From: Amphiscolops sp. MND2022 | Taxonomy: Eukaryota | Direction of reading: 5' to 3' | Length of the DNA: 64,000 bases | Assembly (NCBI GenBank): GCA_964187785.1 | Contig: OZ076409.1 | Location: forward strand, 434,001 to 498,000 | Part shown: positions 10,206 to 57,200 of the stretch, in pieces | How the letters are laid out: the number at the start of each line of letters is the position of its first letter | Position numbering within the stretch: position 1 is the first letter of the stretch | The notes under the pieces: model-generated | Database searches by the model: none | What the model was told of the DNA's origin: nothing | The model's input: only the letters and a program-made list of their open reading frames with translations | Made by a program: the position numbers and the translations under genes

Positions 10206-13200
10206 AAAAAATTTGCCCCGAGATCAAAACACCAAAGAAATATGACCTTATCATTCTTGGTTCAATGCTCGGCACGAAATCACAAGCAGACTTATTGGAA
10301 AAAAATGATTGAACTGGAAAAAGTTAATGGAATTGTTGAAAAACTAGATGGGCACTATGGTTTTTTTATGTTGATAAAATGCTTCAGTTTGCCAAAGTTG
10401 TTGTACGTCCTGAGAACCAGCACATGTTTTAATCATCCAGATCTCTTGAAAAAAGATGACAAAACCGTGCGCGACGGGCTTTCCAAAGTGTGTAAGGTGA
10501 ACTTCGACAATAATTCGAGTCCTCAGCTGGCTCTGCCCGCTAAAATGGGTGGTCTCGGAGTTTCATCCGCATCACTAATAGCACCTCCCGCCTTTCTGGA
10601 TTCAGCTTTTGGTGCGAGTGACTTTCTCACGACGACTTCCTTGAAAACATTCGAAGATGTTTCGTTTACAAAAGCGCTTGAGAAGTGGTTGAGTATGACA
10701 AATGAACAGGAAAGTCCTCTCGATGGAACTCAGAAAAATTGGACACAACCTGTCTAAGTCAAAACCGCCCAAGATTTGATTTCTAGAATGGATGGCAAAC
10801 GTTCGAAAGTTTTCAACGCTCATCAAGGCAAATTCGGGTCTCAATGGTTGAACGTCGTTCCTTGCAAGAACCTAGACCTGAAACTTGATGATCAGCAACT
10901 TCTTATTTCAATTGGTTTGCGTCTCGGTGCCAACATCTGCGTTGCGCATACGTGTCACTGTGGTAAAAGTGTTGAACGGGACGGTTTACACGGTCTTTTT
11001 GCACCAAGAGTGCTGGTCGCTTCTTACGTCATGATACTCTCAATTCTCTCATTAAGCAGAAGGTGGGATCTCTGGACTTGTCTTAATGCTCGAACAGCGT
11101 GGAGTGTAACCGAAATGATGGCAAACGCCCAGACGGTGTTACCATGATTCCTTGGAAAATGGGTAAATAGCTTGTGTGGGATGTCACGGTTGTGAATTCT
11201 CTTGCACACAGTTGCCAAAATCAAGGCCCTTTATGCAACCAACCGGGAACAACCGCCACCGAGGCTGATACATTTTTTAACGGGTGGCCTTGGAAGCACA
11301 TGTTTCTTTATGCTAGAGCAGTGAAATTTCCATCACAAGTCTCTGTAAAATGCTCTGTCGTTCGCACGACGATCAACGAGCTGAAGGTTTTTTGAAGCAA
11401 CGGATTTCAATGGCTCTTCAGATTGGCATGCGGCCTGTGTTCTAGGAACTGTGAGCGACAGAGATGCGTTCGAAGAACTTTATTACAAATGGCTCAATTT
11501 TTATGAACCTTTATAAATCATTGCAGCTTGAAAAATTATTCTACCGGTCGACTGGGATAGTGGCTGGTATTTGTAGTTTGTTGGTTTTTTTTTGTTACTG
11601 GTCTACTGGTATAGTGGCTGGTATGGGGTTCCCTACTTCCGTTGCAGACCACGGTTGTGTCTCCTCCTCCCAACATGATGACACACATGGCACTTTTTTG
11701 ATGACGAATATCCATGATATCAGAACGTAAGACAGAAACAAAAAATTTGCCCCGAGATCAAAACACCAAAGAAATATGACCTTATCATTCTTGGTTCAAT
11801 GTTCGGCACGAAATCACAAGCAGACTTATTGGAAAAAAATGATTGAACTGGAAAAAGTTAATGGAATTGTTGAAAAACTAGATGCGCACTATGGTTTTTT
11901 CATGTTGATAAAATGCTTCAGTTTGCCAAAGTTGTTGTACGTCCTGAGAACCAGCACATGTTTTAATCATCCAGATCTCTTGTAAAAAGATGACAAAACC
12001 GTGCGCGACGGGCTTTCCAAAGTGTGTAAGGTGAACTTCGACAATAATTCGAGTCCTCAGCTGGCTCTGCCCGCTAAAATGGGTGGTCTCGGAGTTTCAT
12101 CCGCATCACTAATAGCACCTCCCGCCTTTCTGGCTTCAGCTTTTGGTGCGAGTGACTTTCTCACGACGACTTCCTTGAAAACATTCGAAGATGTTTCGTT
12201 TACAAAAGCGCTTGAGAAGTGGTTGAGTATGACAAATGAACAGGAAAGTCCTCTCGATGGAACTCAGAAAAATTGGACACAACCTGTCTAAGTCAAAACC
12301 GCCCAAGATTTGATTTCTAGAATGGATGGCAAACGTTCGAAAGTTTTCAACGCTCATCAAGGCAAATTCGGGTCTCAATGGTTGAACGTCGTTCCTTGCA
12401 AGAACCTAGACCTGAAACTTGATGATCAGCAACTTCTTATTTCAATTGGTTTGCGTCTCGGAGCCAACATCTGCGTTGCGCATACGTGTCACTGTGGTAA
12501 GAGTGTTGAACGGGACGGTTTACGCGGTCTTTTTTGCACCAAGAGTGCTGGTCGCTTCTGACGTCATGCTACTCTCAATTGTCTCATTAAGCAGACGGTG
12601 GGATCTCTGGATTTGCCTTAATGCTCGAACACCGTGGAGTGTAACCGAAATGATGGCAAACGCCCAGACGGTGTTACCATGATTCCTTGGAAAATGGGTA
12701 AAAAGCTTGTGTGGGATGTCACGGTTGTGAATTCTCTTGCACACAGTTGCCCAAATCAAGGCCCTTTATGCAACCAACCGGGAACAACCGCCACCGAGGC
12801 TGATACATTTTTTAACGGGTGGCCTTGGAAGCACAGGTTTCTTTATGCTAGAGCAGTGAAATTTCCATCACGGGTCTCTGTAAAATGCTCTGTCGTTCGC
12901 ACGACGATCAACGAGCTGAAGGTTTTTTGAAGCAACGGATTTCAATGGCTCTTCAGATTGGCTTGCGGACTGTGTTCTAGGAACTGTGAGCGACACAGAT
13001 GCGTTCGAAGAAATTTATTACAAATGGCTCAATTTTTATAAACCTTTATAAATCATTGCAGCTTGAAAAATTTTTTCTACCGGTCGACTGGGATAGTGGC
13101 TGGTATTCGTATTTTGTTGGTTGTTTTTTATTACTGGTCTACTGGGATAGTGGCTGGTATGGGGTTCCCTACTTTCGTTGCAGACCACGGTTGTGTCTTC

Positions 13201-13275
13201 TCCTCCCAACATGATGATACACATGGCACTTTTTTGATGACGAATATCCATGATATCAGAACGTAAGACAGGAAC
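10206..13275. repeat. Tandem duplication of ~1.53 kb (10206-11740 / 11741-13275)
   Basis: ATTTGCCCCGAGATCAAAACACC recurs at 10211 and 11745; near-identical ORF translations. Confidence 0.9.
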
Positions 13276-13379
13276 AAGACGGAATCGTCTCAATTCGGTA
13301 CCACATTAAAATTGGATTGTCATCAATTAGCTTGCTTTTTTAGAAAAAAAACAGTTTTTTATTCATCATGTGCCACCAG

Positions 13380-14720: not shown

Positions 14721-14934
14721 AGATCCTACCAAGAAAAATCTGCCTGAGGGATCTTCGAGCGGAACGGAACATATTGATTCCTCCCCGGGACATTTTCTAG
14801 AGCCACCAATTTATGGCTTCAGTCACAGCACACTACAAGTGTTTTATTGCTCTTTCTCAAATAGTAACCGAAGGATCAAAAACGAGCAGAGGGACAAACA
14901 CGGAAAAACCGAACTGGCAGTTTCTGAAACCATC

Positions 14935-17286
14935 TGTTACGACAATTTACCGGTGTTGTTTTAGAGTTAGTCGTATTATGAGTTTTGACGGGGGTAGACG
15001 TCCTTGCTACGGAAACGTTCTCTGTTTCAGAGTCAGAGTCTTGAGCATTGATGAGGACATTTTGTTTCTTGTGGAAGGCGTTATCAGCCGTTGAAGTCGT
15101 TGAGGCGCTATCAGTTTAGGCATTTCCTTTTGATTTTCCTCAAGTATTTTGGTCAGGTCAGACATAATCTCCTTTCTTAGTGACGTTTTTATTTCAGCCA
15201 AGTTTTCTGGTTCTATCCTAGGAATCTTGCTAGAACTAGCTACAAGGGTTTCAGGCGGAAAGTTTTCGGTTACAGAGGTTTCGAAATCACCAGAGACCAA
15301 TTCTGCTACAGCTTTCCTTTTCTGGCTTCTAGTTGTCATTTTGTTCGAGAGAAAGAGAGAGAGTATCTTTGGAAATGTTGAATTCTTCAAAGATTTGTTT
15401 TCGTTATGATAACGGAACAGAACTGATTGTTACAAAGCAAGTCAAAAAACTAATTGATTTACATGTATGTATTACATATTTATACCTTCCCAGCATCATT
15501 TGTTCCTCACCTAAAAATTCCTAGGTATCACAAAAATCGGGTTTGTTCAACAAAAAGCGCTAATGATTCATATTATTTCAGTCCCGCGTCATAAGATCAG
15601 GCATCAAAATTCCTAGTCGCGTCAGCGTTCCGTAAAATTTTGTTGAAGTCATTTTTGTTCAGGCGGTTCATTTCCTGTTTGTGCTTCAAAATTGCGGCAA
15701 AATAGAAGTCTAGTTGACAGTTTCATCAGCGTAGGCACGCCGGCGTGATCAATTAGTCAGCAATCAAGTTAGGAAGATTGAAGTCCGAAGCAAAAGAATG
15801 ACACTCAAAAATGGCGACGAAATCGAGACGGAATGAGTCAACTTGGAAGCGGAAGGAAAATATGGAAATTTGGTATAAAGGAACAAACGATGCTGAAACG
15901 ATAATCCCAAATTCAAACATATGAATTACCTGCTAATGGCATACTACATCATTTATACTGAACTCAAATTAAGTCCAAACGGGACCTTAACGGAATACAA
16001 CAAAGATGAGCGCAACATATTCGTAATAATAAGTGAAAAGCAACTTCAACATTTTACATAATAACCATGAAATTCATCAAAACATAATCAAAGTTTGGTC
16101 ATTAGCCTGATTGTTGTTATCATAAATTACAACTGTTATTACTGACTTGAAAACAAGGAAGTAGCGTTGACCTTACGTCTTGCATTAGGATTATTATTAA
16201 GATATTTTAAGTGCCATAGTAAATCAAGTAGATTTGTTCCATTAAGGAGTTACTAAGCAAAGCATAATGTCAACGCGATTTAGTGATTTACCATGATGAT
16301 ACAAATCCAGAACATAAAAATACCATCGCAATTCCTATCATCCTTCCTTGCAGTACAGTTTTCCTTAAATAAGAAACATAACTCTTAAATCTTTCAAATG
16401 CATCGATTTAAAAGGCTTCGTTAGGATTTCGTTTGAAGCAGTATTTCTTATTTGCGATTTTACAACTCGCTCCGTAGATGCTACGTATTAAGATTATCTA
16501 TAGCTGAACAGCAGAATACAATTTTACAATCCGCTCCGTAAGTGCTCCGTACGTATTAAGGTTGCTTATAGCTGAGCAGCAGTAGTAAGCGGAGTGAAAA
16601 CGGAGAGCGTAGGCGATTCCATTCTCTTTTCTTAGCTAGTAAGCGTTGCTAGGGGCAACCAAGCTTAATTCTACTGGTACCGGCTCGGATAATTCCGCCA
16701 GCAAGCGACGCCGTTGGTCCGTAAAAATAGAAACGCCCGTCACTAGCCTAGTTGAGTGACGCTGTCATAACGTTGTAAACATTTACTTAAAATCACTTGA
16801 CTGCGGTTTTAAGTGGATATTTAACAACTACTTTAAAATTGGAATACATTTCCACTCTATTTTTGTATGTTCTGACATTTTAGATCTTATGGACTCCGTT
16901 GGGATCTCGGAGTTAAATGTCGTTTCTATGTTTTCATTTTAGTGTGGAGCGCCAAAATGATCCCGTTTGCAAAATTATTTAGTGTTTAGATTGGAATGGA
17001 AAACTCAGAAGATAAAACCGGAAATAAAACGGTGTTGCATGTGAAAACTTTAGACCGGAAGTTTTAGCTAGTTTAAAATCATTTCTGAAAATCTTCCGTA
17101 ACGTTTACCTTGAATTCCGTATTTGGAAAATTATTCGCGCTTATTTAACTGTCCTGTAAGTAGGATTTTGATTTGATTAGTTTAACAAAGTTTAAAAGTA
17201 TTTACTCTGTCCTTGTCCATGTCCTCTGCCGAATCCCGGTATACCAGAGCAGCAAGTAAAATTACGACCGGGAGGGGGTCGTGACA
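14935..17286 (-). repeat. 3' LTR (2352 bp)
   Basis: Direct repeat of 29205-31530, ~99% identical by eye apart from a net 26-bp insertion near 15070-15105; TG...CA ends with 9-bp imperfect inverted repeat. Confidence 0.97.
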
Positions 17287-17298
17287 GGGCCCCTCTTG
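17287..17298 (-). promoter_or_regulatory. Short polypurine tract candidate
   Basis: Minus strand reads CAAGAGGGGCCC immediately before the 3' LTR TGTCACGAC. Confidence 0.5.
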
Positions 17299-17349
17299 AT
17301 GAGAGTGACAGGGGTAGAGCGTGGCAGTGCGGGATTTCTTTCTTTATTG

Positions 17350-18032
17350 TCACGGGGGGCGACCATTGTACTTTCTTGAATGGAGGGGGTCTCGTCTTCT
17401 TCCCGCCTTCATGTCCCTAATTTTCCTTTCTTCTTCGTCTAGCTCACGGACTTCCTTCTCCAGTCGTTCTACTTCCTCCGGACAGCATTTGGGGGGTCTA
17501 ATTATGATGTTAGGACGCAGATTTTTTTTAAGCGCGGCTGATTTGTATTCATTGCGTGTCGCCCGCGTCCACGGCCTAAGGATGCGAGGTAATTTCGGTC
17601 CTCTAAGTCCAGGCTGTACAGGGCTTCCAATTCCGCCAAAGAAGGCTCATTCAAGTCGTTTAATTTTTCCGAGTTTGGCATTTTTTCATTTCCCAGAACA
17701 GGGATATTTTCCGTTCTTTTTAGAACAGGAGTACGCTTTATTGGGGAAGGTAGGCGTTGCGGGGAGTCTGGCTCTTCATAGTAATCCGTGTCAGAGTCGG
17801 CTGACAGCAGATTGAACGTGACTCTTCCTGTTTTCCTTTTCTTTTTAGGTGTCGGTGCCGTTTCGGGTGACTCGGAAGTGGAAACCATTTCTGCATCGCT
17901 TCCGCGATAAACTTCGGCAGAGGAATCGCTCATATATCCTACCATATTAAGAGGCAGCGTTTTTATCGGCGTACTTGTTTTATTGGCTTCTTCGTCTGAC
18001 GAGATGTCGATAACTAGCGAATAGTTGTTCAT
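17350..18032 (-). pseudogene. Accessory sense ORF: acidic/Ser-Pro-rich protein with PKKKRK NLS and probable C-terminal coiled coil; one frameshift in this copy
   Basis: ATG at 18032, 176-aa ORF; an overlapping frame from ~17575 continues PWTRATRNEYK...EEVERLEKEVRELDEEERKIRDMK...RPP* to TGA at 17350-17352, with AATAAA 2 nt later. Confidence 0.6.
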
Positions 18033-18039
18033 TTTAGTA

Positions 18040-18439
18040 GGAAAAAATGCTGAGAACTATTTCGGAGAGGTTGCAGGTAGTTTGTAAGCAAAGATTTCTT
18101 GTGACACTTCAGAAAATTCAGAAAGTTTTAAGCTGGTCAAGCTTCTGCGAAAATTGGACAACAAGTGAACGTTTTAAATTCTTTCCTTTCGCGATTTTCA
18201 TCGAATTTCTATTGGTCGATTTTCCGTTTTCATTCCGGTTCGTCACGAGTTAAAGGAAACGAGTTCTTTCTTGCTGTGTTATGATTGGTCCAAATACTTA
18301 AGGGAAAACTTCTAATTTTAGTTTCCGTCCTCTTTTCGGTTAATGGCGTAATGACGTCACAGAATTACGTCTGTATTCCGTGATCTTTTAATAATTTTTC
18401 AAATTCTTCTTGGCATTTCTTGGTGGATTTTTATCCACT
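18040..18439. promoter_or_regulatory. Candidate internal bidirectional promoter between the two accessory genes
   Basis: Lies between divergent ATGs; ATTGG (CCAAT) at 18211 and 18284, AATGGCG at ~18342, perfect TGACGTCA at 18352-18359. Confidence 0.4.
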
Positions 18440-18641
18440 GTAAGGTCTTTGGAAACGTTTTGTTCCGTCTATACCATAATAGGCTTTTATTGGAGTTGAA
18501 GATTGGGTGATTTTCATTTGTGTAGGAATGATGTTGTTAATTTCCTCCCAATTAGTTGAGTTTACGTAACGTAATTCTTCTTTGTGATTTTCCTTTTTCT
18601 TTTTAGATTGCTGTGGGCATCTTTGCTGTCGTTTCTTTTCT

Positions 18642-21600
18642 ATGGATGACGAAACTGCTCCGCCCCAAGGCACCGTCACCGGATTTGTCAGTGGCAATGA
18701 AACTAATTTTTGTTATACTGACGATGACGTGATCTTTTCGGAGGTGGAGGCAGTGGTTACTTCTTCAGGTTGGTAAAATCTTTCTGACTTTCATGGGTAA
18801 TTGGACTGTTGTTTTGGTGATCAGCCTTTCCAGTCTTACCCGAATACCTGACGCGTCAAACCAGATCTTGATTTTCAGTAACTCAACCTGGCGCTTCAAC
18901 TGCAGTTGTTTCCGTAGCCACTGCGGGAGTTCTTTCGACAGAGGCTACCGTTCTGCCATCAGTTTCTACTATCTTGTCTACTAAGCCCACTAGTGCAGTT
19001 AACGAAGTGTTAACCACTGTATTGACTAGCGCTGAGCCCGACGATTCATTTCCAGTGGACTCTTCTCCTGCCATTGTTGGTCCGAGTACACGTGTTGTTG
19101 CTGCGAGTAGCGATAGTGAGTCTCAAGAAGGTGAGACAGATCCCCCGCCAATAGGAAAACCCGTTGGTAGATTCGTTTTTGATAGTGTATTTTTGATATG
19201 TGGGCGGGGTGTACGAAAATTATTTTTGTTGTTGTAGATATGAGGGATGCTGAGACGCATGGGCCTTCCAACATTTGTGTGACGCCATCGAAACGGGCGA
19301 AGAAGGTTGTTATCGCTCCGCCATCGCCTCCTCCTTTGATGCATGCTTCTACTGGTTGGCAAAGTTAGTTCTATTATTGGTATTATTTTCCGCTGCGTTC
19401 TTTGAATTGAGGAGAGTTTTAGTTGCCCATTGGTTTGGTTTCTTTGGGGATATCCTATTTTTTGGTAATCGTTTTCATTGGGTGTTGATGTTGTGTAGGT
19501 CACGATGATGATCAGTTAAATGGTGTCGGCGGTGTGACGTTGAGTCCCCAGGACGTGATGCGATTGGGTCAGCAACTTGTGGAAGAGTTGAAGGAAAGTG
19601 CTACGCTGGTTATTCAAAACGGTTAGCGTTTGCGTTTTTCCCTGTAATTCGGGTATTACTTTGTTATTTGGTGAGGGTTTTCGTTCATTTACAGTGTAGT
19701 GTGGATATTCTTTATCCTCTTTGTATGTTGTTTTGTAGAGTTGCAAGAGTTCAGTGGGAAAGTAGAAAAACGTCTAGCCAAGCGGACAGTGAAGACATAC
19801 GGGAATCGCAACACGTTGCAACGTCGTATGTTGAGTCGACATCCTTCATTTCCTGATTTCGTGACAGGCTCCACGACCGGTGAGGAAACTCACTTCCACT
19901 GTCGGGTATGCAAGCGTGATGTGGCCATGAAAGCTCAGGGCTCTGGAGAGTTGGGCAGACATTTCCGTTCTGATGCTCACTGGTTCAAGGACATTACTTA
20001 TCGCGTCCATATGGGTCTTCAGGTGCTCAACAGGTTGATGGAGCCGATGGAATTGTCAGCAAGTCAACTGGCAGATTATAAGTCTCGACCATTTTGTGAT
20101 CTTAGCGGGGAGTATCCGTTCCCTGAAGATCTATTGCCTAAGCATTCAAAAGCGGAGTCAAACGTGCCCTACATGACCTTGGTTTCTTGTTTTTGTGAAT
20201 TCTTGCGGAATGGTGGTAATTTTGATTATCTTCGTCGTCTGTGGGGCCACTTCCGAGCAACATTGGGCGACCAAGAACCTTGCTTTCTTTTACGATGGAG
20301 CCGTTCGGAGACCGTGGTGAGTTGGTTTTGTTATTGCTATTGTTTGTTTCTGTCGTGTATCCGGGTGAGAGAAAACAGAAGGGAATAGGGGGGGTATGTC
20401 TTTTGTAGTTGTTTAGAAAAAAGGTTCTCGTTTGTGTTTTAGTCATTCCTTTGTCGGGGGCTGGCTCCGCGAGTTCTTCGTCTGATGGTGAGTGACGTCA
20501 AATCTTTTAAAGAGTACGGGATGCAGTTTGAGAAGTCTGGGTGCATAGAACGTTGCTATGTTCTTTGTTGGGATGGACTGAATTTAAAGAAGATTTGTGT
20601 GGGAGATCAGTCTTTGGATCAAAAAATGCCCGAACCCGAGTTGCTTCAGTTGGCACGTGTAGCGAGCTGCCTGGAGGGACAACAATTACCAGTGTCAGTT
20701 CTCGGCGCTAGCCCTTCGCTCATTCGCGCGTTAGACACGAACAGGACGGATGATCGGCGGTTTCTGTCATGGCAGTCGTTTGATGAGGAGGTGTTTCTCC
20801 AGTGTTTCCGACAGTCTCATCAGGACATTTTTGGAATGATTGAAGTGACGACTGCATTGGAGTATGTGATCCATCGATTGAAAAGGGCTCTCTATGAGGA
20901 TTGGACAGAAGACAAGCCTCGTCTTCGAGCGTGTATACGGAAAGGCTCCGTTGCATTCTGCAATCTTCGAAAGGTCCTAGGCGATTTGATCGAACTGTGG
21001 CCTTCCATACGTCCTTACATTCGCTACACTGGACATCCTCATTTTAAGCGTGTTGCTGATAGGGTGAGTACTGTCGTATTATTAGTTTATTTCGATCTTG
21101 TGTCGTTCCTTTGTTCTCTCCTGTGCTTTCCTGTGCTATATTTGATCTTGGAATGATGGTATAATTTATCCATTTTAGCTGCGCGGCACAGACTTCGAGT
21201 TAATTTCCGATAGTCTCATTGTCTATCGTTTCGGCTTCCTTCGACTGCTTTTAGACTCCTGTAAGTACGGTGGTCTTTCGTTATAATTGTTCTCTTTCGC
21301 CTGTTTCTGATTGTGGTAGCGTATTGACTGATGTTTCTTGTCATTGTGGGTTTGCTATTGCATCTGGTTTCTATTGGCTGTTTCGTTTTGATCAGGATTC
21401 CATATCTTTTCAATAGTTCTTGTGTTTAGAATACTTCAATTTTGAGAAATTGCGTCAATGCAGGAGAGATTACGGGTTTCATGGTTACGGTGAGGTCTGC
21501 AACTTCGTCTACTGTCTGCTGATGCGAACCCGTAAACTGTCTGATTTGCCTGGTATCCATGAATGAGAACGTTATATGGATGTTTCGAAACTTTCCTATT

Positions 21601-22694
21601 TCAACGCTATTTCCATGAAAGAGTTCCTGATGGACAGTGATTTTGGTCGCGAGTTGGTCACTGTCAAGACGGGTGAGATGCGGGAATTCCGCGTTAAATG
21701 CCGTGGGTGTATCGATCGGCTTGTGTCTTTGGTCCTGACTAGTACAGCTGTGACTTCTGCCGTTTCGCGAGGACTTTATGCTTTCTGTCCGGAGATTATG
21801 TTGGGAGGCGACGATCACCACATTTTCAAGTTGTTTGGCTCGCTTTGTGATTTATTCAGATCCTGCCACGTGATGTCTTCGGACGGCTTGAATGCTGCTA
21901 ATGCTGAGTTCAAAAGTTATGTGATAGAGAAACGCAGGCATTACGAGGATGCGACATGTGCTGCGAGTGAGATTCCTGACGTGGTTCAGTTTCTGTTGCG
22001 GGATTTTGCCTTCCAGTCTCGGACTCATGTATTTCGACTGTTTAAAATATGTTGTCTGGTGGTTGGAGTGCCAAAAAGTAGCCTTCCTGCGGTTACTATT
22101 GATTTGGGTGGTAGCGCGCTGAGTCCGACAGTGGTTCAGGATTGTGTATTGATAGTGCAGTCTCACATCGTAAGTCCAAGTTTCAATCCTCGATTGTTCT
22201 TTTCAGCATCGTTGCTTGTTGCAGTCCGGGAAGCTATTACAGAGTCAGGCATTTTCTTCAGGGTTGCCGATTTTGATGTATGGAAAGATTTTTGCTCTGG
22301 CGATATGGAGTCTTTTGTTGGGCATTATCGATCTTTGTATAAGAAGTATTTGATGGGACGACGGAGGGAGTACGACACTTTCTATGTGGAATGCAACAAG
22401 GCAAATCGGCGTTCTCGCGAGAGTCAGTGTTCAAGTTCAACTGAGGCCGGAAGTGCTACAAGTTCTGTTGTCGGTTCTAAGAAGGCATCGTCAAAGATTG
22501 CTTCGTCAAAGTCTGTGAAAGTAAATGCGTCTACTACTCGTTCATCAGCAAAAGTTGTGAGTAAGGAAGATGGAGCTGTTGCGAAAAAGAGTGGTGGGGG
22601 CAGTGTGTCTAGAAGGTCAAAGAAAGATAAGGGCAGTGATTCTGATGATTCTGATGTAGTCCACAAGTTGAAAAAGACATCTTCTAAGAATTAA
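18642..22694 (+). CDS. Eight-exon antisense accessory gene (~1054 aa): disordered N-terminus, CX2CX16HX5H zinc finger, hAT-transposase-like body, Ser/Lys-rich tail; this copy has 1-2 premature stops
   Basis: Exons 18642-18768, 18879-19130, 19238-19354, 19499-19621, 19739-20316, 20443-21063, 21179-21260, 21430-22694; all introns GT-AG, T-rich, 107-169 bp; phases join into one frame (3165 nt). TGA at 21564; last junction ambiguous (best sites create TAA). Confidence 0.8.
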
Positions 22695-22801: not shown

Positions 22802-25800
22802 TCATTCGTTATAGTTACGTAGTTTTAGTAGATTGCGAAAATTGACGTAGTCATTCCGGTTCGGTTTGATATGCTGATTCTTTTGTCTAGTCTTGAGCTG
22901 ATCTCCCGTAGTGACTGAGTCGAGCATTCTGAAGTCAGGATTTACGTTAGGTCGTGGATTAGGTCTCAAATTATATCGCCCTACTTTCCTAGGATTATAT
23001 CCAATGACTATAGGCGGTAGTTCGGGTGTTTTGGGAGGGCTTTCTATAGGTGGCGGTGTAAAAATATAGGGGTTGTCGCTGACGTCCAAGTTAAATGACG
23101 TTATATTGTCGGAGGGTGTTTTATCTTCTGCAGTATTTTCATTTGTGGCTGTTTGAGCCACGTCATTTTCCGTTATATCTTCGCTTGTGGTTGTTTTAAC
23201 CACGTCATTTTCCGCTGTAATTTCATTTGTGATTGTTTTAACCACATCATTTTCCGTTGTAATTTCGTCGTTTCCTGTTGTGTCTGTGATTTCTATAACT
23301 GTGGCTTCTTCGGCGGCGTTTTCCGTATTGTTTCCGAACAGAACTTCTCCGAATTCGGTTTCCCAAGCTTGCGCGTACCAATCATTGTGGGTTGTTTTAA
23401 CCTCTGGATCTGGAAGGTAATCTTCCCTTCTGACTGTTACGTCAGGTACTCGCTGATTGGGCGCATATAGCTTTAGGCGAATTCTATGGAGGGTTTGAGT
23501 ATACCTAGTTCCTGTGCGACGTACGACGTAGTTATTGTTCGAGAGTGATTTGACTACTATGTAGGGTCCAGTCCAAATGCAATCTTTAAAGGCAAATTTC
23601 ATTGACTGGTTGTCTGCCTTCGGATTGAGGACGTAGCAGTAGTCGTTGACTTTGAGCGGTGTAGCCGTTGCTTTCTTGTCATAGTACTGTTTGTATTTGA
23701 GGTAAGACTGCATTAGGTTCTCTTTGGCAGCTTGGTGTATTTCGGCTATTTGTTTCTGTAGTTGGTCCGTTAGTTCTTCGTTGCTATCTTTTTCCCAGTT
23801 AGGTTTCAATCCAAGTTTCATGTCCAAAATGTTGTACGGGATGCGTCCGTGAAACACTGTTGTAGGTTCACAACCTAGGCTTTCATGGTAGCTTGTATTG
23901 TAATTCATGAGTGCAATCTGGACGTATTTGTGCCACATGGAACGTCGTTCTCCCGTTGATATCTTGAAAGAGGTTTTCAAAGAAGCATGGGTCCTTTCTA
24001 GGATGCCAATTGTTTGGGCGTGTTTCGTCGATGCGTGGTTTATCCGTATATCCAGTGTTTGTGCTATTTGGTTGACTACTTCTGACCTGAATTGTGATCC
24101 TTTATCCGTTAGAATGACGGTCGGTAGATAGCAGTGTCGTGTCATGACGTCTATTATGCATCGTGCGACTGTTTTTGCTGTCATATCCTGAGTCGGGTAA
24201 GCGAAAAGGTAACGCGAAAAAACATCCATCATCGTTATGATGTGTTGGTACCCATTTGAGGAAGGTAGATTTGGTAGAATGTCTACTTCTAGGCAGTCTT
24301 CTGGTCCCATTGTGAATTCAGTGTTGCTTAGCATTTTGGGACGTATCTGTCTCGTGTCTATTCTTTTATTGGCAATGCAATCCTGACAACTGGTTACCCA
24401 AGCTCTGATTTTGCGTGCAAGACCCGGGAAGTAGTATTTCGCTCTGCATTCTTGTATCATTTTGGTGATTCCTGGGTGTTTATTTGTTTTCCCATGTAGA
24501 GTGGACAGGAGTTCTGAGACTAGGTGTTTTGGAATTATAATTTGGTTATGTGTGACTGATCCGTCTTCTCCATAGTACTTTCGCATCAGAACTCCATCTT
24601 TCATTATGATTCTTTCTTCGTGGCGTAATAGGTTTTGTCCTCGTGGTTCAGTTTTGAGAAGGTGCTTGTCACATTCTTCGTGTGAGATCCGTTGTTTCAG
24701 TGCTTTGAGGAGGGGGTCTGCATCTTGTTCATTTCTGATCCGTGCATTTTCCTTGATTGCACCGAAAGAGTAGACTGCGGAGTTGAGTGGTATCTTGATG
24801 ACGTCGGTTATTTTTGTTGATAGGTCTCTTTCGTGTTCGTCTAGGGCACGTCGCTTGCTGAGTGCTTTTCGGGCAAAAATTTCTTGTTCAGATTCATCTT
24901 CTTCGTCTGGTAGGAAGAAAAGTTGTTCCTCGTCTGCTACATCTGATGATTGTAAATTAACCTCAATTGGGGACGTTAGGATGTCGTCTCGTAGTTTAAG
25001 TTGTACCTTTTCTTTCGGTGTAAGTTCAAGTCTTGAGAGAAAATCTGCTGCCGTGTTTTGGGAGCCTGCTACGTGCATGATTCGGAACTTGAATTGTAAT
25101 ACATAGTCACAGGCATTCCAGAGTGCAGAGGGTGTCGTTTTTGTCTGGAAGAAACTAGTTACTGAGCGATTGTCTGTTAAGACCAGCGTTGGAATTGTTG
25201 TTTCCCATAGTATGTGGCTGTATTCGAGGAAGGCATGGTAGATTGCTAAGAATTCCTTGCAGTAGATGGACATTTTCAGTTGTGCAGGTGAAAAAACTCG
25301 TTATCCGAACGCTACTGGTGCGAAGGTTTTTCGTTTGGAGAGTATTTTGCGTTCGTCGTTCTCCTCAATCATGAGGGCGTAGCCTGATGCACGAAAGCTT
25401 GCATCCGTCATTAGAACGTACTGTTTTCCTGCTATGGGCTGTCGGAGTGCAAGTCCACAAGCTTCCGCTAAACTGGCGTTAATTTCCTTAAAATTATCGA
25501 CAAGTTCTTCTGAAATTCTGATCTTGGAGTCTGCTTTGAGAAGTTCGTACATGCCGATGAGTTTTTCTGACAAGCGCGGTTTGTAGTTGCGGTAGTAGTT
25601 AACAAAGCCAATGTATTTTTGAACTTGTTTTTTGGATTTGGGGAAGCGGACTTGGGAGAGGAAATTTTTGACTTTTTTATCTTGCGGGGTTACTCCGTCG
25701 GGGGTGATGGTTCGGCCAAGGAATTCGATTTGGGTTACTCCAAAATGACATTTTTCGATGGTTAGTTTTAGTCCTGCTTTTCTAATGCATTTGAAGGCTG

Positions 25801-28180
25801 CTCTGATGTTCTTTATGAGCTGTTCCGTTGTGTTTGCGGCAATGCCAATGTCATCTACATATTGTGCACATTGGTCTGCTTTGATGACTGAGTCCAGATA
25901 CTCACGCATAAAGCTCGAAAAAACTGATAGAGCTCTGCTTAATCCTTGTGCCAGGCGACGGTAGGCGAACGTCCTACAAGCAAAATTGAAAGCAAGTAAT
26001 TCTACTGACCTTTGATCTGCCATTTGGAGGCAGTGGTACGCCTGGGAGCAGTCAAGCTTGCAAAATAGTTTTTTCCCTGCTAGGTGTTGTGCCGCATCTG
26101 AGAGGGTGCTGACAGGGTGGTTGTTTTTGATGTAGTCATCTGCTATGAGTGCGTTGATTTTGCGCAGATCCACCAGTAGTCTCAGCTTGCCGTTGGGTTT
26201 CCGTTGTGCAAATATGGGACTGGCATACTTGGAGAAGGGGAGTGTTGTGATGATTCCGTATCGATGCATGAGGGCCAGTTCTACAGTCAGATCTTCTTTG
26301 AGGTTGATGGGGACGGGTAGGCTTTGTGTGTAGACTGGTTTGTCGTCTTGTGGTGTTAGGCTGACTTTGAATTGTGTGTTCATCCCTATGTCTAGCCGGT
26401 GTCGAGCGAAGAAGTCGTTGAATTCGACAATGGTGTCCTCGAGGTTTTCACGGTCTTTGTTCGCAATCAGTGAATCTGTCCATTTGAACGTGGATAGAAA
26501 TTTGTTTCGAGACTCTTCGTTTTCGGTTGGGTCAAGTTTTTCTAACTCGGCGAGGTCTCGCAGTTCGCAGTTCTTTCAAGATTAGCTTTTGTATGGGCGA
26601 ATGTTCCTGTTCGTTGCCGGGGTGTTCTGGGGTCGGAAACCAGAATTTCTCTTCATTATCGTCGGGCCGCTCTACTTGCATTAGTGCATTAATGTACGTG
26701 ACTACATCGTCATGGTCAGTGAGGTGGTTTAGGGCGGCTATGTCAACTGGGCGGATCATCTTCGTTTCTTCGGGTTTCAGGATTTGCAATTCGGCCATTT
26801 TGGTGTTGGTGGCTATTGTGTATGGGAAATCCGTGGTGTTGGCGATTTTAATTGGTATCTTTTGTCTCTGGCTGTTGTAATCGCTGGGGCTACTATTACC
26901 TTCGCGCATTCATCGAATTGTGGTAGGGGTTGTATAGTGCCCGCTATTGAGTGTTCGATACTCACAGGGATTGTTGCGTAGATGATTCGGGTAGAGTGCG
27001 CTGGAATTGTATGCTTGGCTTCGGTCTTTATCGTGATGGGTTTGGGATTGCACTTTTGTCTTTCATCTGTGAGCGCCATCGTGATTTGGATCTTAGGAAA
27101 GTCGATGGTTCCTTGTGCCGTGTCAAGAATTGCGGCATGCTTACGTAGGAACGCTAATCCGATTATGGGGAATGACGTTTAATTCATGATAATGAATGTT
27201 TCTTCAAAGGTGTAATCCCCTATTTTGAAACGAAGGGTGTACGTGGCAAGTGGTTGTTCTAATTCAGCATTGGCATACTGCACTTTGAAAGGGGGTGGGG
27301 GTGCCTTATTGACGATGCACTGACTAGCGTGCTGTCGGAGTTTTTCAGTGTCCCTTTCACTAATAGCGTTAATGTACGCACCTGAGTCGACTAAAGCGTC
27401 GATTTTGATCATGTTGAATTCGACTGGTAGGAAAAGCATTCGTTTTTTCTTCTTGAGCGCGATGGAAGACATTAACGGGATGTAGTCGTCATCTTTGTCA
27501 TGTTGGATGAATTCCTTGATGGCATCTAGATCTTCAGGCAATTCTGAGGGACATTCGGTGATTTCTACGTCGTCGTTCATCAGTGCTGTGACGGGCGCAG
27601 TTTTTGGAGGGGTTACTGGAGGATCAACATTTTCTCGTTTTCGTCTTTCTTGATGTGCCCATATTGTTTTATCTTCAATGCAGAATATGTTTTCTGCGTC
27701 TATCGGTGTGGACGCGATGGTGACGGGTACTGTTGGGGATGGTGTTGTTCTTTTTAGAATTGGCGATGGTGGTGATGGTAGGTCCATGATTTCTGTGGAT
27801 TGAGCCTGGGGGTTTGGGACTTGTATTTTGAAAGAGAGTTTGTTAGTATCGTAAATGGTTGGTTCGTCCCAAGGGTCGCATCTGTAGTCTCTATCGTAAA
27901 TGAAGATACGCTCAGTTTTTGATTCCGGCAAGGGTCGCTTGAGTGTTGCGTAGTTATCTGGTGACTCTGTTATCCATTGGGGTAGTGGTGTCGGGTCGTC
28001 TGGATGTCTGGCATTGTGTCGGAGTATCATGCCTACGTTCCATCGGCGTTGCCAGTCCTGAGTTGGTTCTTCGTTACACTCTGTGAAAAAATCTTCTTCG
28101 TACCTATTTGGGGGGTCTTCGATGGTGTACGCCCTCGCGTCTACTTTTTCCCCGAAGCGTAGGCGCGGCGACTTCAGTTT
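22802..28180 (-). pseudogene. pol: pol polyprotein (aspartic protease, RT, RNase H, integrase) with one stop and about three frameshifts
   Basis: ALVDSGA protease; LRLLVDLRKIN, KLDCSQAY, LAQGL, YVDD RT; TDAS and TDNRS/AADFLSR RNase H; H..HPG..C..C plus D-ILP / TDKGSQF / ERTH integrase. Confidence 0.95.
23125..23275 (-). repeat. ~42-bp coding tandem repeat (ITxENDVVKT-like) in the integrase C-terminal tail
   Basis: EITTENDVVKTITN / EITAENDVVKTTTS / EDITENDVAQTATN / ENTAED. Confidence 0.75.
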
Positions 28181-29583
28181 TCTGCTTGGGACGACGTTGT
28201 AGGTACGGGTTGTTCGTCAATCTTGTTTGTTGGGATATTGAACTCACGTTTCCGTTTCCTGGGGTCATTTGCCGCATTGGCTCCGTCCCAGCAATTTTCG
28301 GTTTTGTGCATTTCCCCACAAGTATCGCATTTGGGTTTAGCTGTATCTGTTTGTTTGGTGTCTGTGGTACTTGTTTTTGTGGCGTAGTACCTGTCTTTGC
28401 GGAGGCGACGGCATTGTGCCTTGTAATGTCCGTATTTCCCACAGTGGAAACAGTAACCTCTCTGCTGTTGTTCTTTCTTATCGTCCGCCACTGCTGCGTC
28501 CACAGTGTTGAGGGGGACTAGAGTGGTTTCATCAGGCGCTCCTAGTCCGTTGAGTCGCATTTCGCGTTCAAGGTGTAAAACAATGTCGTTATAGGGCTTA
28601 TCTTCTAGGTAGGCTCTGTTAAGGATCTTTTTGACGTGATCCGGCATTTTAGCGTATATGGCTTTGTCGATGAACTTCTGGGCTTCTGAGCCAAACGCTT
28701 CTTTTGCGGTTTTTTGTAACGGGTCAAGAAATTCGTGGAGTTTTTGTTTAGTGGGGTCGAAATGTAGCGCATCCCACTCACATCTCGCTTTAGCGGATGA
28801 TTTGAAATCGCCAAAGCGACGTTTGAATGCCGTTATGACTTCTTCTAGGTTGTCTTTTTTAGTGTCATCTAGATTGGAATACGGTTGTAGCGCGTTTCCT
28901 CGTAGGAGTGAATGGAAGTAGTTGATCTTTTGTATCTCGGTTAACTGAGGGTACATTTTGATAATATTTCGGAATAGGTCCTCAAAAAGTTCAAACTTTT
29001 CGGACTTACCATCGAAGACTGGAAGTGAAGCTGTGAGTGCTTTCGGCATCGGAAGTAGATTGGTGGCTGGGAATGTTTGCGGTTGTGGCGCGAACAGTAT
29101 TTTGGATGTGGAAGGACGGTCTCTTGTTTGTTCGTTGGATGCGCGTTGTTGTTTCAATCTTTTCGTGGGTTGGTTGGTAGAGTCATTGAGGACTCCTGTT
29201 ACCATGTTACGACAATTTACCGGTGTTGTTTTAGAGTTAGTCGTATTATGAGTTTTGACGGGGGTAGACGTCCTTGCTACGGAAACGTTCTCTGTTTCAG
29301 AGTCAGAGTCTTGAGCATTGATGAGGACATTTTGTTTCTTGTTTAAAGGCGCTATCAGTTTAAGCATTTCCTTTTGATTTTCCGCAAGTATTTTGGTCAG
29401 GTCAGATATAATCTCTTTTCTTAGTGACGTTTTTATTTCAGCCAAGTTTTCTGGTTCTATCCTAGGAATCTTGCTAGAACTAGCTACAAGGGTTTCAGGC
29501 GGAAAGTTTTCGGTTACAGAGGTTTCGAAATCACCAGAGACCAATTCTGCTACAGCTTTCCTTTTCTGGCTTCTAGTTGTCAT
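28174..29583 (-). CDS. gag: Gag (469 aa from the first ATG) with two zinc knuckles; starts inside the 5' LTR
   Basis: Intact ORF; LPVFDGKSEKFELFEDLF capsid-like start, CFHCGKYGHYKAQC and CDTCGEMHKTENC knuckles; ATG at 29583 (the track start at 29634 is TTG). Confidence 0.92.
   Translation of the reverse strand: MTTRSQKRKAVAELVSGDFETSVTENFPPETLVASSSKIPRIEPENLAEIKTSLRKEIISDLTKILAENQKEMLKLIAPLNKKQNVLINAQDSDSETENVSVARTSTPVKTHNTTNSKTTPVNCRNMVTGVLNDSTNQPTKRLKQQRASNEQTRDRPSTSKILFAPQPQTFPATNLLPMPKALTASLPVFDGKSEKFELFEDLFRNIIKMYPQLTEIQKINYFHSLLRGNALQPYSNLDDTKKDNLEEVITAFKRRFGDFKSSAKARCEWDALHFDPTKQKLHEFLDPLQKTAKEAFGSEAQKFIDKAIYAKMPDHVKKILNRAYLEDKPYNDIVLHLEREMRLNGLGAPDETTLVPLNTVDAAVADDKKEQQQRGYCFHCGKYGHYKAQCRRLRKDRYYATKTSTTDTKQTDTAKPKCDTCGEMHKTENCWDGANAANDPRKRKREFNIPTNKIDEQPVPTTSSQAEN
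29187..29204 (-). promoter_or_regulatory. Primer-binding site
   Basis: TGGTAACAGGAGT directly follows the 5' LTR end; resembles the complement of a tRNA-Leu-type 3' end (tRNA identity not verified). Confidence 0.7.
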
Positions 29584-31530
29584 TTTGTTCGAGAGAAAGA
29601 GAGAGAATATCTTTGGAAATGTTGAATTCTTCAAAGATTTGTTTTCGTTATGATAACGGAACAGAACTGATTGTTACAAAGCAAGTCAAAAAACTAATTG
29701 ATTTACATGTATGTATTACATATTTATACCTTCCCAGCATCATTTGTTCCTCACCTAAAAATTCCTAGGTATCACAAAAATCGGGTTTGTTCAACAAAAA
29801 GCGCTAATGATTCATATTATTTCAGTCCCGCGTCATAAGATCAGGCATCAAAATTCCTAGTCGCGTCAGCGTTCCGTAAAATTTTGTTGAAGTCATTTTT
29901 GTTCAGGCGGTTCATATCCTGTTTGTGCTTCAAAATTGCGGCAAAATAGAAGTCTAGTTGACATTTTCATCAGCGTAGGCACGCCGGCGTGATCAATTAG
30001 TCAGCAATCAAGTTAGAAAGATTGAAGTCCGAAGCAAAAGAATGACACTCAAAAATGGCGACGAAATCGAGACGGAATGAGTCAACTTGGAAGCGGAAGG
30101 AAAATATGGAAATTTGGTATAAAGGAACAAACGATGCTGAACCGATAATCCCAAATTCAAACATATGAATTACCTGCTAATGGCATACTACATCATTTAT
30201 ACTGAACTCAAATTAAGTCCAAACGGGACCTTAACGGAATACAACAAAGATGAGCGCAACATATTTGTAATAATAAGTGAAAAGCAACTTCAACATTTTA
30301 CATAATAACCATGAAATTCATCAAAACATAATCAAAGTTTGGTCATTAGCCTGATTGTTGTTATCATAAATTACAACTGTTATTACTGACTTGAAAACAA
30401 GGAATTAGCGTTGACCTTACGTCTTGCATTAGGATTATTATTAAGATATTTTAAGTGCCATAGTAAATCAAGTAGATTTGTTCCATTAAGGAAGTACTAA
30501 GCAAAGCATAATGTCAACGCGATTTAGTGATTTACCATGATGATACAAATCCAGAACATAAAAATACCATCGCAATTCCTATCATCCTTCCTTGCAGTAC
30601 AGTTTTCCTTATATAAGAATCATAACTCTTAAATCTTTCAAATGCATCGATTTAAAAGGCTTCGTTAGGATTTCGTTTGAAGCAGTATTTCTCATTTGCG
30701 ATTTTACAACTCGCTCCGTAGATGCTACGTATTAAGATTATCTATAGCTGAACAGCAGAATACAATTTTACAATCCGCTCCGTAAGTGCTCCGTACGTAT
30801 TAAGGTTGCTTATAGCTGAGCAGCAGTAGTAAGCGGAGTGAAAACGGAGAGCGTAGGCGATTCCATTCTCTTTTCTTAGCTAGTAAGCGTTGCTAGGGGC
30901 AACCAAGCTTAATTCTACTGGTACCGGCTCGGATAATTCCGCCAGCAAGCGACGCTATTGGTCCGTAAAAATAGAAACGCCCGTCACTAGCCTAGTTGAG
31001 TGACGCTGTCATAACGTTGTAAACATTTACTTAAAATCACTTGACTGCGGTTTTAAGTGGATATTTAACAACTACTTTAAAATTGGAATACATTTCCACT
31101 CTATTTTTGTATGTTCTGACATTTTAGATCTTATGGACTCCGTTGGGATCTCGGAGTTAAATGTCGTTTCTATGTTTTCATTTTAGTGTGGAGCGCCAAA
31201 ATGATCCCGTTTGCAAAATTATTTAGTGTTTAGATTGGAATGGAAAACTCAGAAGATAAAACCGCAAATAAAACGGTGTTGCGTGTGAAAACATTAGACC
31301 GGAAGTTTTAGCTAGTTTAAAATCATTTCTGAAAATCTTCCGTAACGTTTACGTTGAATTCCGTATTTGGAAAATTATTCGCGCTTATTTAACTGTACTG
31401 TAAGTAGGATTTTGATTTGATTAGTTTAACAAAGTTTGAAAGTATTTACTCTGTCCTTGTCCATGTCCTCTGCCGAATCCCGGTATTCCAGAGCAGCAAG
31501 TAAAATTACGACCGGGAGCGGGTCGTGACA
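29205..31530 (-). repeat. 5' LTR (2326 bp)
   Basis: Direct repeat of 14935-17286; followed on the minus strand by the PBS. Confidence 0.97.
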
Positions 31531-32021
31531 CCATCGAAAATCTGATTTGATTGTAGAAGAAGAAACAAAAAATTGAAAGAGTTTTATGAAATGAAACATA
31601 ATTGGAATTGTCTCAACGAGTTATGATCGTTCTTTCAGCCCAAGTGCCGCAACAAATCAACAAAACAGCGTCAGAGATTTTGTCCAGTTGGCTACTGTTC
31701 AAATTCATAGCTATGTTTGAAGTGATTTAACAAGTCCGTCACAACAATTAGGCTAAAGGCTGAAAACACCACAATTGATGCTCAAAAAGCGCATATAATT
31801 CGACACATGCTCAGGACTTATTTCTGAAACACTCACATGAAAATGAGACTATTCAACAGTCGCATAGTGTCGAAAAAGTTGAAAGGGGACTCTTCGGGAT
31901 TTTTCAATTTTCAATCAGTTGCCAAACATCCAAAGTATGAAGAAGGGACACTTTGGAGACAAAAAATTTTTGATACGTCTCACAAACCCAGAAAAAAGAG
32001 TGAAGTCTCATAGTGCTGATA

Positions 32022-40009: not shown

Positions 40010-41990
40010 GCATATATACAATGCATTATATATTTCAAAATAGACGAGGGTAACAAAAACTTAGGACACTCAAATTCGCTGACACAAAACGCGTTAGGTC
40101 TTTATATGAACAGAACAGTTTATTCAATTGGATATTTGAAAGTACATAAAGAATCAAAGAAACAGAAAAAAAAATTCATCGAAACTATATATATATATCC
40201 AATTAGGACGCAAAATGAGTATTACTACTCTTCTAAGTTTGCGCCCTTGAGAACCAAACATGTGCCTCACTTAATTTCATTTTTTCTTATTTTTTCTTAT
40301 ATGCTTTGTTCAGAAAAGTTTCAGGAGAAAAAAAATGGTTGTAATTACAAATTTTTTTGACCAAAATTATCACAGCCTTTTTCTTTGTTTTGATATCAAA
40401 CAAAACTGGAAAAGCGAATTAACCCTAATTAGAATGAGCGTATTAGCAAATTTTTGAGAATTTCGGATTTTTTTCAATCGTCAATATCTCTTCAACTACG
40501 CATAAAAATTCGAATTATTTTGCTTTTGTTGCACAAGGTTTTGTTTTAAAAAATTTGGGGTTGCCTGCATGAGTCAAGATTTTTGAGAAAATTGGACTTT
40601 GCCAAATTTGGAATTTCGAAAAAGTTCAACCTTTCTTTCGAAATACAAACCCATTTTTCTCACCGATGGAGAAAACCTTTAATTTTGATAATGCTTTTGC
40701 CGTTCGGACCAAACCAAACACGGTGCCAATAAATTGTTGAACAAAAACGATGCTAAGAAGATGGCTTTCTGGCGAAACGAACCAAAAGTTGAAAATATGA
40801 ATGACCCCTCAAAGTACCGCGATGGTATTTAGGGTTGATCATCAGGCATATTTGTGCTTTGGCACTTTCGATATTTATCAGGCATTGTCTAGCAAACCGC
40901 CGGTGATATCAAACAAGCCGGGACAGGCCCAAGTCGGCGCCATATCTAAGGCTCAAAATAGCAAAAGGTCTTCAAAATGTCAAAGTATTGGTGAATCGGG
41001 GACCCTTTGATGATTTTTTTTGCAAAAAAGTATCACAATGTCGAAAAAACTGAATGGGGGATCCTTTGGGCTTTTTCAACATCCATTCTGTCATATATAT
41101 ACAATGCATTATATATTTCAAAATAGACGAGGGTAACAAAAACTTAGGACACTCAAATTCGCTGACACAAAACGCGTTAGGTCTTTATATGCTTTGTTCA
41201 GAAAAGTTTCAGGAGAAAAAAAATGGTTGTAATTACAAATTTTTTTGACCAAAATTATCACAGCCTTTTTCTTTGTTTTGATATCAAACAAAACTGGAAA
41301 AGCGAATTAACCCTAATTAGAATGAGCGTATTAGCAAATTTTTGAGAATTTCGGATTTTTTTCAATCGTTAATATCTCTTCAACTACGCATAAAAATTCG
41401 AATTATTTTGCTTTTGTTGCACAAGGTTTTGTTTTAAAAAATTTGGGGTTGCCTGTATGAGTCAAGGTTTTTTGAGAAAATTGGACTTTGCCAAAATTGG
41501 AATTTCGAAAAAGTTCAACCTTTCTTTCGCAATACAAACCCATTTTTCTCACCGATGGAGAAAACCTTTAATTTTGATAATGCTTTTGCCGTTCGGACCA
41601 AACCAAACACGGTGCCAATAAATTGTTGAACAAAAACGATGCTAAGAAGATGGCTTTCTGGCGAAACGAACCAAAAGTTGAAAATATGAATGACCCCTCA
41701 AAGTACCGCGATGGTATTTAGGGTTGATCATCAGGCATATTTGTGCTTTGGCACTTTCGGTATTTATCAGGCATTGTCTAGCAAACCGCCGGTGATACCA
41801 AACAAGCCGGGACAGGCCCAAGTCGGCGCCATATCTAAGGCTCAAAATAGCAAAAGGACTTCAAAATGTCAAAGTATTGGTGAATCGGGGACCCTTTGAT
41901 GATTTTTTTTGCAAAAAAGTCTCACAATGTCGAAAAAACTGAATGGGGGATCCTTTGGGCTTTTTCAACATCCATTCTGTCGCTAAACCC
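40010..41990. repeat. Tandem duplication, period ~889 bp (first copy has an extra ~190 bp)
   Basis: 40300-41090 matches 41190-41980; 40010-40107 matches 41095-41190. Confidence 0.85.
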
Positions 41991-43619: not shown

Positions 43620-44062
43620 CGAACATAGATGGCCATTTTCACTTTTTTCGCCACTATTCGACTTACCGAAGTTAGGATAAATTTGAAGAATTTTTCGAAA
43701 ACAAAATCGTAAGGTTTATTTCACAATTTTTGGTTGTATGAGGTTTTCTGTGAAGGGAACATTTTTTCCAAGTCTTGAGGGTGACCTCTTTGTTACGTTT
43801 TTATCCTGTGGAACTGATGAATTCTCCTAATGATTGTAGAGAAACCTTTTTTCAGCCTTTTTCGGCTCTGTCTGTCTTTTTCGAAACTTTCATTTGGTGA
43901 AACGGAACCCCTCGCTTTCAGAGCTGATTTCGGCTTGAGAAAAAGTGGTTTTGCGAGCTGAAATCTTTTTCGGCACCATGAGACTTTTCGGGGAAAAGTT
44001 AACAAGAAATAAATATTCAAAAATGGGTTTTCGTGTTTCCACTTCGATTTCCGGGTCTTGGA

Positions 44063-44107
<45 letters not shown>

Positions 44108-56495: not shown

Positions 56496-56499
56496 GGAA

Positions 56500-57000: not shown

Positions 57001-57200
57001 NNNNNNNNNNNNNNNNNNNNNNNNNNNNNNNNNNNNNNNNNNNNNNNNNNNNNNNNNNNNNNNNNNNNNNNNNNNNNNNNNNNNNNNNNNNNNNNNNNNN
57101 NNNNNNNNNNNNNNNNNNNNNNNNNNNNNNNNNNNNNNNNNNNNNNNNNNNNNNNNNNNNNNNNNNNNNNNNNNNNNNNNNNNNNNNNNNNNNNNNNNNN
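57001..57200. other. Assembly gap (200 N)
   Basis: Run of N. Confidence 1.

Follow-up and report, generated by a model that had tools for sequence, protein, structure and literature searches.

In the textbook organization of retrotransposons with long terminal repeats (LTRs) the LTR is non-coding and the gag gene begins after the primer binding site. It is known from retroviruses that LTR sequence can code, as in mouse mammary tumour virus Sag and in the human immunodeficiency virus Nef overlap, neither of which is Gag and both of which use the U3 region of the 3' LTR, while the glyco-Gag of murine leukaemia virus is an N-terminal extension from an upstream start that is located downstream of the primer site. 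Such systems share LTR coding or Gag extension with the element described here, not the opening of gag in the LTR. This element is a minus-strand LTR retrotransposon of 16,596 bp (~16.6 kb; positions 31530 down to 14935) in a 64,000-nucleotide stretch of Amphiscolops sp. MND2022 DNA (assembly GCA_964187785.1, contig OZ076409.1, positions 434,001 to 498,000 of the forward strand), the whole of which is referred to below as the window; its gag gene very probably opens inside the 5' LTR, and the frame continues across the LTR end and the primer site.

The closest described arrangement is that of yeast Ty1, where the 5' untranslated region comprises 53 nt and the primer site occupies nt 95–104 of the RNA, inside GAG (PMC5454406); the first-pass annotation of the window had named Ty1 as a precedent with a short overlap, which agrees with that paper. 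As in Ty1 and Ty2 of Saccharomyces cerevisiae, the start codon here would fall within the part of the RNA 5' end that derives from the LTR, and replication signals overlap with coding sequence: gag starts 379, 397, and 343 nt inside the LTR in the window's own family (family A) and in two related families of the same genome (families B and C), respectively, and is uninterrupted across the primer site. The Ty1 overlap is about 41 nt (~14 codons) before the primer site by these positions, versus 343–397 nt (114–132 codons) here, and unlike in Ty1 it takes up about a quarter of Gag including a predicted helix. The primer is tRNA-Leu(CAG) instead of the initiator tRNA-Met of Ty1, superfamily and host are different, and the LTRs are far longer (2.1–2.5 kb). 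Very long LTRs and unusually large size are shared with Ogre and Diaspora; according to PMC1142308, the gag start of Diaspora, a plant Ty3/gypsy element with a long LTR, is 873 bp downstream of the LTR, and Ogre has an extra separate open reading frame (ORF) upstream of gag; in these elements gag stays well downstream of the LTR, whereas here gag reaches back into it. Besides Ty1, the literature searched, in which coverage of subscription journals was incomplete, yielded no other report of a gag gene that opens within an LTR, and the feature is well supported as a variant of the Ty1 arrangement with a long overlap, in another superfamily.

The coordinates and the translation given in the first-pass annotation proved to be exact: the gag ATG (29583–29581) is located 379 nt, i.e., 126 codons plus one nucleotide, before the LTR end at 29205. 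It is the first ATG of its frame, in which a stop stands immediately upstream of 29673. The window translation across the junction is ...TTPVNCRN-MVTGVLND, and the junction-spanning Gag peptide is elsewhere given as ...TTPVNSRN-MVTGVLNDSTNQPTK. In this 379-nt stretch the two remaining frames contain 13 and 15 stops; 125 codons remain open in 5 of 20,000 mononucleotide shuffles of the LTR-coded stretch, and the longest open run in the other 1831 nt of the LTR is 60 codons over six frames.

The coding signal was studied in copies from the 1.07-Gb genome, where 2542 first-look candidates were found and 40 were scored; 30 loci with a 5' LTR–gag junction, the window's included, were compared, being the best by similarity and not a random sample. 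Diversity at the three codon positions was 0.057/0.037/0.134 in the 126 LTR-coded codons and 0.047/0.034/0.165 in internal gag, versus 0.094/0.088/0.061 over the 177 nt that precede the ATG, and codon-periodic variation thus switches on at the gag ATG. A check of dN/dS on the LTR-encoded codons, proposed earlier, was carried out as the pooled Nei-Gojobori ratio of nonsynonymous to synonymous differences per site (pN/pS; 406 pairs of 29 copies, with the truncated L015 excluded) and gave 0.19 for these codons and 0.14 for internal gag, versus values above 1 in the two wrong frames (1.08 and 1.53). The distribution of insertions and deletions was similarly uneven: 24 events fall in the 177 nt upstream, of which several are common to 13–19 copies and have lengths not divisible by three, the 379 coding nt show 3, every one confined to one copy, and internal gag shows 18, nearly all singletons. 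The gag ATG is retained in 28 of the 30 copies and all 126 codons are intact in 22. Taken as a whole, the pattern makes it highly probable that the LTR stretch is coding and that gag opens in the LTR, and conservation indicates translation from 29583.

The comparison of related proteins leads in the same direction. The Gag protein search returned 1193 proteins at E up to 0.001, of which 17 were taken into the alignment, and the first nine Gag residues are invariant in all 17. In homologues of ~55–59% overall identity the motifs M(S)TTRSQKRK and RNMVTGVL are invariant, while the LTR-coded part is 35–37% identical versus 67–71% in the capsid/zinc-knuckle core. Family B (~55% Gag identity) is represented in the same genome by 20,671 first-look gag candidates, and 83 of 89 scored matches have no stop across the whole Gag. 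In the family B copy analysed the LTRs (2485 nt) are 99.84% identical and flanked by the target duplication GTATT, the gag ATG is 397 nt inside the LTR, and the LTR end with the primer site is the same as in family A. In the copy of family C, whose Gag is 35% identical and begins with MPEKSQKRK, the LTRs measure 2058 nt, the target duplication is ATATA, and the gag ATG is 343 nt inside the LTR. The earlier proposal that gag begins in the LTR is thereby upheld by codon periodicity from the ATG, by the low pN/pS, and by an N-terminus that three families retain even where Gag identity has dropped to 35%. Among 1.84 billion representative proteins searched, further distant Gags were found with MVTGV after N, H, or D, as expected if the frame there, too, runs through (A/C/G)AC A-TG GTG ACA GGA GT, that is, CA followed by TGGTGACAGGAGT. 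Two side observations concern family B: a copy with near-identical LTRs (L043-L045) contains two in-frame stops in pol at positions unlike those of the window copy, and the match C89:70104-71537 lies in a 2167-aa open frame, which means that gag and pol are fused there.

At the protein level, Gag matched DUF1759 of Pfam at 3.8e-09, Retrotrans_gag and zf-CCHC remained below the Pfam cut-offs, and its profile gave only weak zinc-knuckle/nucleocapsid matches among PDB sequences. The structure model is most confident for the helix of residues 44–77, with a predicted local distance difference test score (pLDDT) of 70–89, and falls below 50 for residues 80–194. According to this model the LTR-coded Gag is predicted to consist of a basic N-terminus, one long helix, and the first part of a disordered linker, and the fixed junction peptide is probably situated in a flexible linker.

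The claim that the LTR/primer site junction itself forms an in-frame ATG (Met127) is correct, and the ATG is kept in 29 of the 30 family A copies and also in families B and C; it is, at the same time, an automatic product of CA meeting TGG, and only its frame is informative. All 13 nt of TGGTGACAGGAGT pair with tRNA-Leu(CAG) plus CCA at L049:1439-1520, a gene confirmed by ARAGORN, whereas the window copy has one mismatch due to a private G-to-A change at 29200. The search with the tRNA 3'-end pattern found 972 genomic places, one of which was confirmed as tRNA-Leu(CAG), and ARAGORN detected no tRNA in three of the four dispersed matches checked. Most of the 972 matches form a dense one-strand array on contig C8 (~35.587–35.638 Mb and beyond) with a spacing of roughly 240–590 bp, often 296 bp. 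Extra tRNA contacts past the 13-nt site were also considered and set aside as chance, the short complementary runs of family A not being present in family B.

Genome-wide, the 23-mer that joins the LTR end to the primer site was counted 372 times, versus 0 in the reversed control, and apart from the private change of the window copy this junction is identical between family B and the other family A copies. Third-position diversity is the lowest in gag at codons 121–135 (0.022) and 136–150 (0.038), compared with a mean of 0.157 over the gene; among 45-codon blocks the one beginning at codon 113 is lowest, and 12 of the 424 reach a value as low as that of the test block. In the comparison of family A with family B, identical codons make up 110 of the 257 degenerate ones that encode the same residue, which represents the background, while the codons of C-R-N-(M)-V-T-G are all identical except for V128 of the window copy (a private GTA, where B and the remaining family A copies have GTG), and those directly after this run differ synonymously between the families. 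The sequence comparison supports the view, put forward in the first-pass annotation as a dual constraint, that the LTR end and the primer site are constrained beyond coding for about 23 nt; the overlapping constraint may extend some 70 nt further.

Concerning transcription, the only blastn match between family A and family B LTRs is a 32-nt block of 93.75% identity around GGTATAAATA, which includes a TATAAA retained in 27 of the 30 copies of family A and all 12 of family B. Transcription is predicted to start at A29699, 29 nt past the TATA box, and the resulting leader would measure 116–131 nt; 29 of the 30 copies of family A and all 12 of family B lack an ATG there, and numerous indels in the leader are shared between copies and not divisible by three. 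A look-up of RNA sequencing runs containing 29100–29800 gave no entry. An AATAAA at 29432–29437 was considered as a possible polyadenylation signal; it is not conserved and is absent from 7 of 30 family A copies and from family B.

The mechanism proposed on this basis is as follows. Transcription would begin near 29699, ~30 nt past the TATA box that is conserved in the LTR, and the first AUG of the RNA, at 29583, would open gag, with its first 126 codons within the LTR. The frame then crosses the terminal bases of the LTR, which are the end acted on by integrase, and enters the 13-nt tRNA-Leu(CAG) primer site, read as C-R-N-M-V-T-G-V, before going on to the capsid and zinc-knuckle part. Because the frame passes through both LTR end and primer site, the same 23 nt would serve integration, reverse-transcription priming, and coding together; their synonymous sites are frozen, and the location in a linker would tolerate a fixed peptide. 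If polyadenylation in the 3' LTR occurs upstream of the coding stretch, the 3' copy of this stretch would be outside the genomic RNA, and every cycle would restore it with the 5' copy as template. As the coding stretch is LTR sequence, every 3' or solo LTR repeats the promoter, the start codon, and 126 outward-facing codons. The system would work like yeast Ty1 with its primer site inside GAG, with an overlap about nine times longer and in a different superfamily.

Several points weigh against this reading. The pseudo-frames of the upstream 177 nt gave pN/pS of 0.45–0.64 and not 1, which reflects the noise of short stretches, and copies within a family are related, so that the pooled pairs are not independent; the low third-position diversity at the junction also reflects the fact that the copies have a mosaic history. 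Overall, the structure model is of poor quality, with a mean pLDDT of 49. The window copy itself is non-working as judged from its mutated initiator motif, primer-site mismatch, and broken pol. The transcription start, the polyadenylation site, and the use of the gag ATG are inferred; no TATAAA lies closer than 260 nt to the gag ATG in family C, and the AATAAA mentioned above is the only one between the predicted start and the LTR end, the extent of R not being fixed by it.

The mosaic structure of the copies deserves separate mention. In a comparison with loci L006, L010, and L020, the window subgroup and another subgroup are 93–99% identical up to ~28760 and only 68–81% identical from there to the gag end, which points to recombination between subfamilies inside gag. 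An exchange of the LTR-coded Gag module together with the LTR had been suggested by the synonymous divergence (dS) between L001 and L006, 0.09 in the LTR part versus 0.85 in the internal part, and was rejected, as the identity break is within gag near 28760 and not at the LTR end.

Among the alternative explanations, the first is that both forms are made, namely full Gag from 29583 and, via an internal transcript, a truncated Gag from Met127 as a possible regulator, by analogy with the truncated Gag known from Ty1. The wide retention of the in-frame junction ATG in the three families and the ORF calls of some related families, which start at that Met, are in line with it; the conservation of this ATG is, however, fully accounted for by the LTR end and the primer site, and the stretch from 29583 to 29205 showed no conserved block resembling a promoter, which makes this alternative very improbable. 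The short Gag isoform proposed in the first-pass annotation accordingly found no support, the gag ATG and three more ATGs preceding the junction ATG on the predicted mRNA.

The same order of ATGs bears on a second alternative, according to which the LTR open frame is untranslated and Gag is made from Met127 or later, either from a transcript start downstream of 29583 or through leaky scanning. The context of the junction ATG is favourable (AAC ATG G), and four predicted proteins of distant families (P0130, P0134, P0163, and P0241) begin precisely at MVTGV; these may be gene-caller truncations of broken copies, and an ATG that arises wherever CA meets TGG carries no signal by its presence. Since purifying selection and codon periodicity start at 29583 and not at 29205, indels avoid the LTR-coded stretch, and the nine N-terminal residues do not vary in the aligned Gags, this explanation is very improbable. 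The least probable alternative, that the inner repeat edge is not a true LTR boundary and the 379 nt are a secondary duplication of the gag 5' end beside the 3' LTR, might be suggested by the 26-nt insertion that distinguishes the 3' copy in that very stretch, and is already refuted by the boundaries, as the repeat end abuts the target duplication and the primer site exactly, three families, each with its own target duplication, have this inner edge in common, genomic matches stop at that base (2 of 40 scored matches terminate precisely at 29205), and in one family B subtype the 73 exact LTR-end matches are mostly paired 13–14 kb apart. The opening of gag in the LTR is retained as the preferred reading.

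The features of the element are collected in Table 1. The LTR pair is 97.7% identical over 2352 aligned columns with 27–28 substitutions and one 26-nt indel (blastn, MAFFT), and both LTRs have TG..CA ends, with TGTCAC at the start and GTAACA at the end. The 26-nt insertion of the window's 3' LTR is absent from all 29 other 5' LTR copies, and because of this it is considered to have arisen after integration of the element.

Table 1. Features of the retrotransposon in the window (positions are those of the 64,000-nucleotide stretch).
Feature	Position	Strand	Description
Target-site duplication, 5' side	31531..31535	-	GATGG; read from sequence
5' LTR	29205..31530	-	2326 nt, TGTCAC...GTAACA; blastn and MAFFT against 14935-17286
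TATAAA, predicted core promoter	29723..29728	-	In the sole LTR block aligning between families A and B
Initiator-like motif	29696..29701	-	TCAGTT in 21/30 copies, TCAATT in window copy
Predicted 5' untranslated leader	29584..29699	-	116 nt, without ATG
gag ORF	28174..29583	-	469 codons and stop; DUF1759 and Retrotrans_gag matches, CCHC knuckles
LTR-encoded part of gag	29205..29583	-	126 codons and 1 nt; MTTRSQKRK start, predicted helix 44-77, disordered linker
Junction ATG (Met127)	29203..29205	-	A29205 (last LTR base) with T29204 and G29203 of primer site; in frame
Primer binding site, 13 nt	29192..29204	-	TGGTGACAGGAGT in 27/30 copies; complementary to tRNA-Leu(CAG) 3' end and CCA
pol	22802..28216	-	Order protease, RVT_1, RNase H, Integrase_H2C2, rve (Pfam matches)
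Three antisense ORFs	19675-20388, 20443-21156, 21567-22694	+	Downstream of pol
Purine run	17290..17297	-	AAGAGGGG, then CCC, immediately ahead of 3' LTR; read from sequence
3' LTR	14935..17286	-	2352 nt; partner of 5' LTR by blastn and MAFFT
Private insertion in 3' LTR	15077..15102	-	26 nt; adjoins near-repeat of CTGATARCGCC
Target-site duplication, 3' side	14930..14934	-	GATGG; read from sequence

The element is of the Ty3/gypsy (Metaviridae) type by its LTRs, primer site, polypurine tract (represented by AAGAGGGG), pol order, and Gag. The Pfam matches of pol comprise a weak aspartyl protease, RVT_1 at 1.5e-23, RT_RNaseH, Integrase_H2C2, and rve; the integrase domains are downstream of reverse transcriptase and RNase H, which does not agree with Ty1/copia (Pseudoviridae), and no Peptidase_A17 match was found, the reverse transcriptase being of RVT_1 type and the integrase of H2C2 and rve type, which does not agree with Bel/Pao. 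DUF1759, the Gag match here, is presumably frequent in Bel/Pao Gags, and the affinity of Gag is left undecided. An env of errantivirus type was not found, as no sense ORF downstream of pol is conserved between families A and B, and the conserved ORFs there are antisense. The pol of the window copy is interrupted by two in-frame stops and one frameshift, and this copy is a degenerating member of an abundant ~16-kb Ty3/gypsy-type family. The element length is 15.7–16.6 kb across families A, B, and C, and since all three fall in this range the large size is regarded as normal for the clade and not as the result of nested insertions.

Other observations refer to the rest of the element and the window. 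C-terminal to integrase, at 23123–23267, three overlapping 61-nt units with 42-nt spacing, 74–80% identical, constitute a 14-codon tandem repeat in the pol frame. In the ~2.3 kb of 17287–19600, between the antisense ORFs and the 3' LTR, there is no protein-level conservation between A and B. Outside the element the window contains pairs of direct repeats of 97–99% identity (10205–13277, 40297–41768, 43615–48362, and 50058–56796), an N run at 57001–57200, and, at its right end (58554–63885), a satellite-like array with a period of ~1.23–1.37 kb.

The antisense ORFs are conserved between families A and B with 37–50% amino-acid identity in the antisense frames (tblastx), and for the third of them 79 of 109 genomic matches are without stop, typically in a 425-aa open frame. 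No Pfam match was obtained for these ORFs even at E up to 5, and no usable Atlas match for the 375-aa one. The two 237-aa ORFs were considered as paralogues and proved not to be paralogous; the first antisense ORF contains a zinc-finger-like CxxC...H...H motif.

The outward-facing LTR ORFs, anticipated in the first-pass annotation as a route into flanking host DNA, hold as a structure and as predicted ORFs, and fail for the window's own 3' copy, where the gag start is frameshifted by the 26-nt insertion and stops after 110 residues. About 19 of 31 short representative proteins examined consist of the LTR-coded N-terminus ending in ...SRN and unrelated tails of 5–87 residues; these proteins are gene predictions, and the outward-facing ORFs are a fact of structure only. 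In the family B subtype with paired LTR-end matches, this pairing means that full-length copies dominate over solo LTRs. A broader and rather doubtful proposal is that a whole clade of large animal gypsy-type elements, with candidate copies in the tens of thousands in this genome, uses the downstream LTR as the first Gag segment, that firing of 3' or solo LTRs would yield fusion proteins, that (N/H/D)-MVTGV marks the clade, and that the antisense module would make these elements unusually gene-rich.

Annotation pipelines mask LTRs ahead of gene calling, and for this clade such masking would remove a quarter of Gag and leave stray proteins composed of the LTR-coded N-terminus and a random tail, which are visible in public sets. 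The sharing of one RNA by translation and the start of reverse transcription has, to our knowledge, been studied mainly in yeast Ty1, and the integrase end, the tRNA primer site, and the reading frame on the same 23 nt would offer a natural case for it. Each outward LTR would be a ready-made 5' exon with a start codon for host genes, and, if the clade-wide proposal were true, each LTR would be a portable promoter combined with a start codon and a helix-bearing domain of 114–132 codons.

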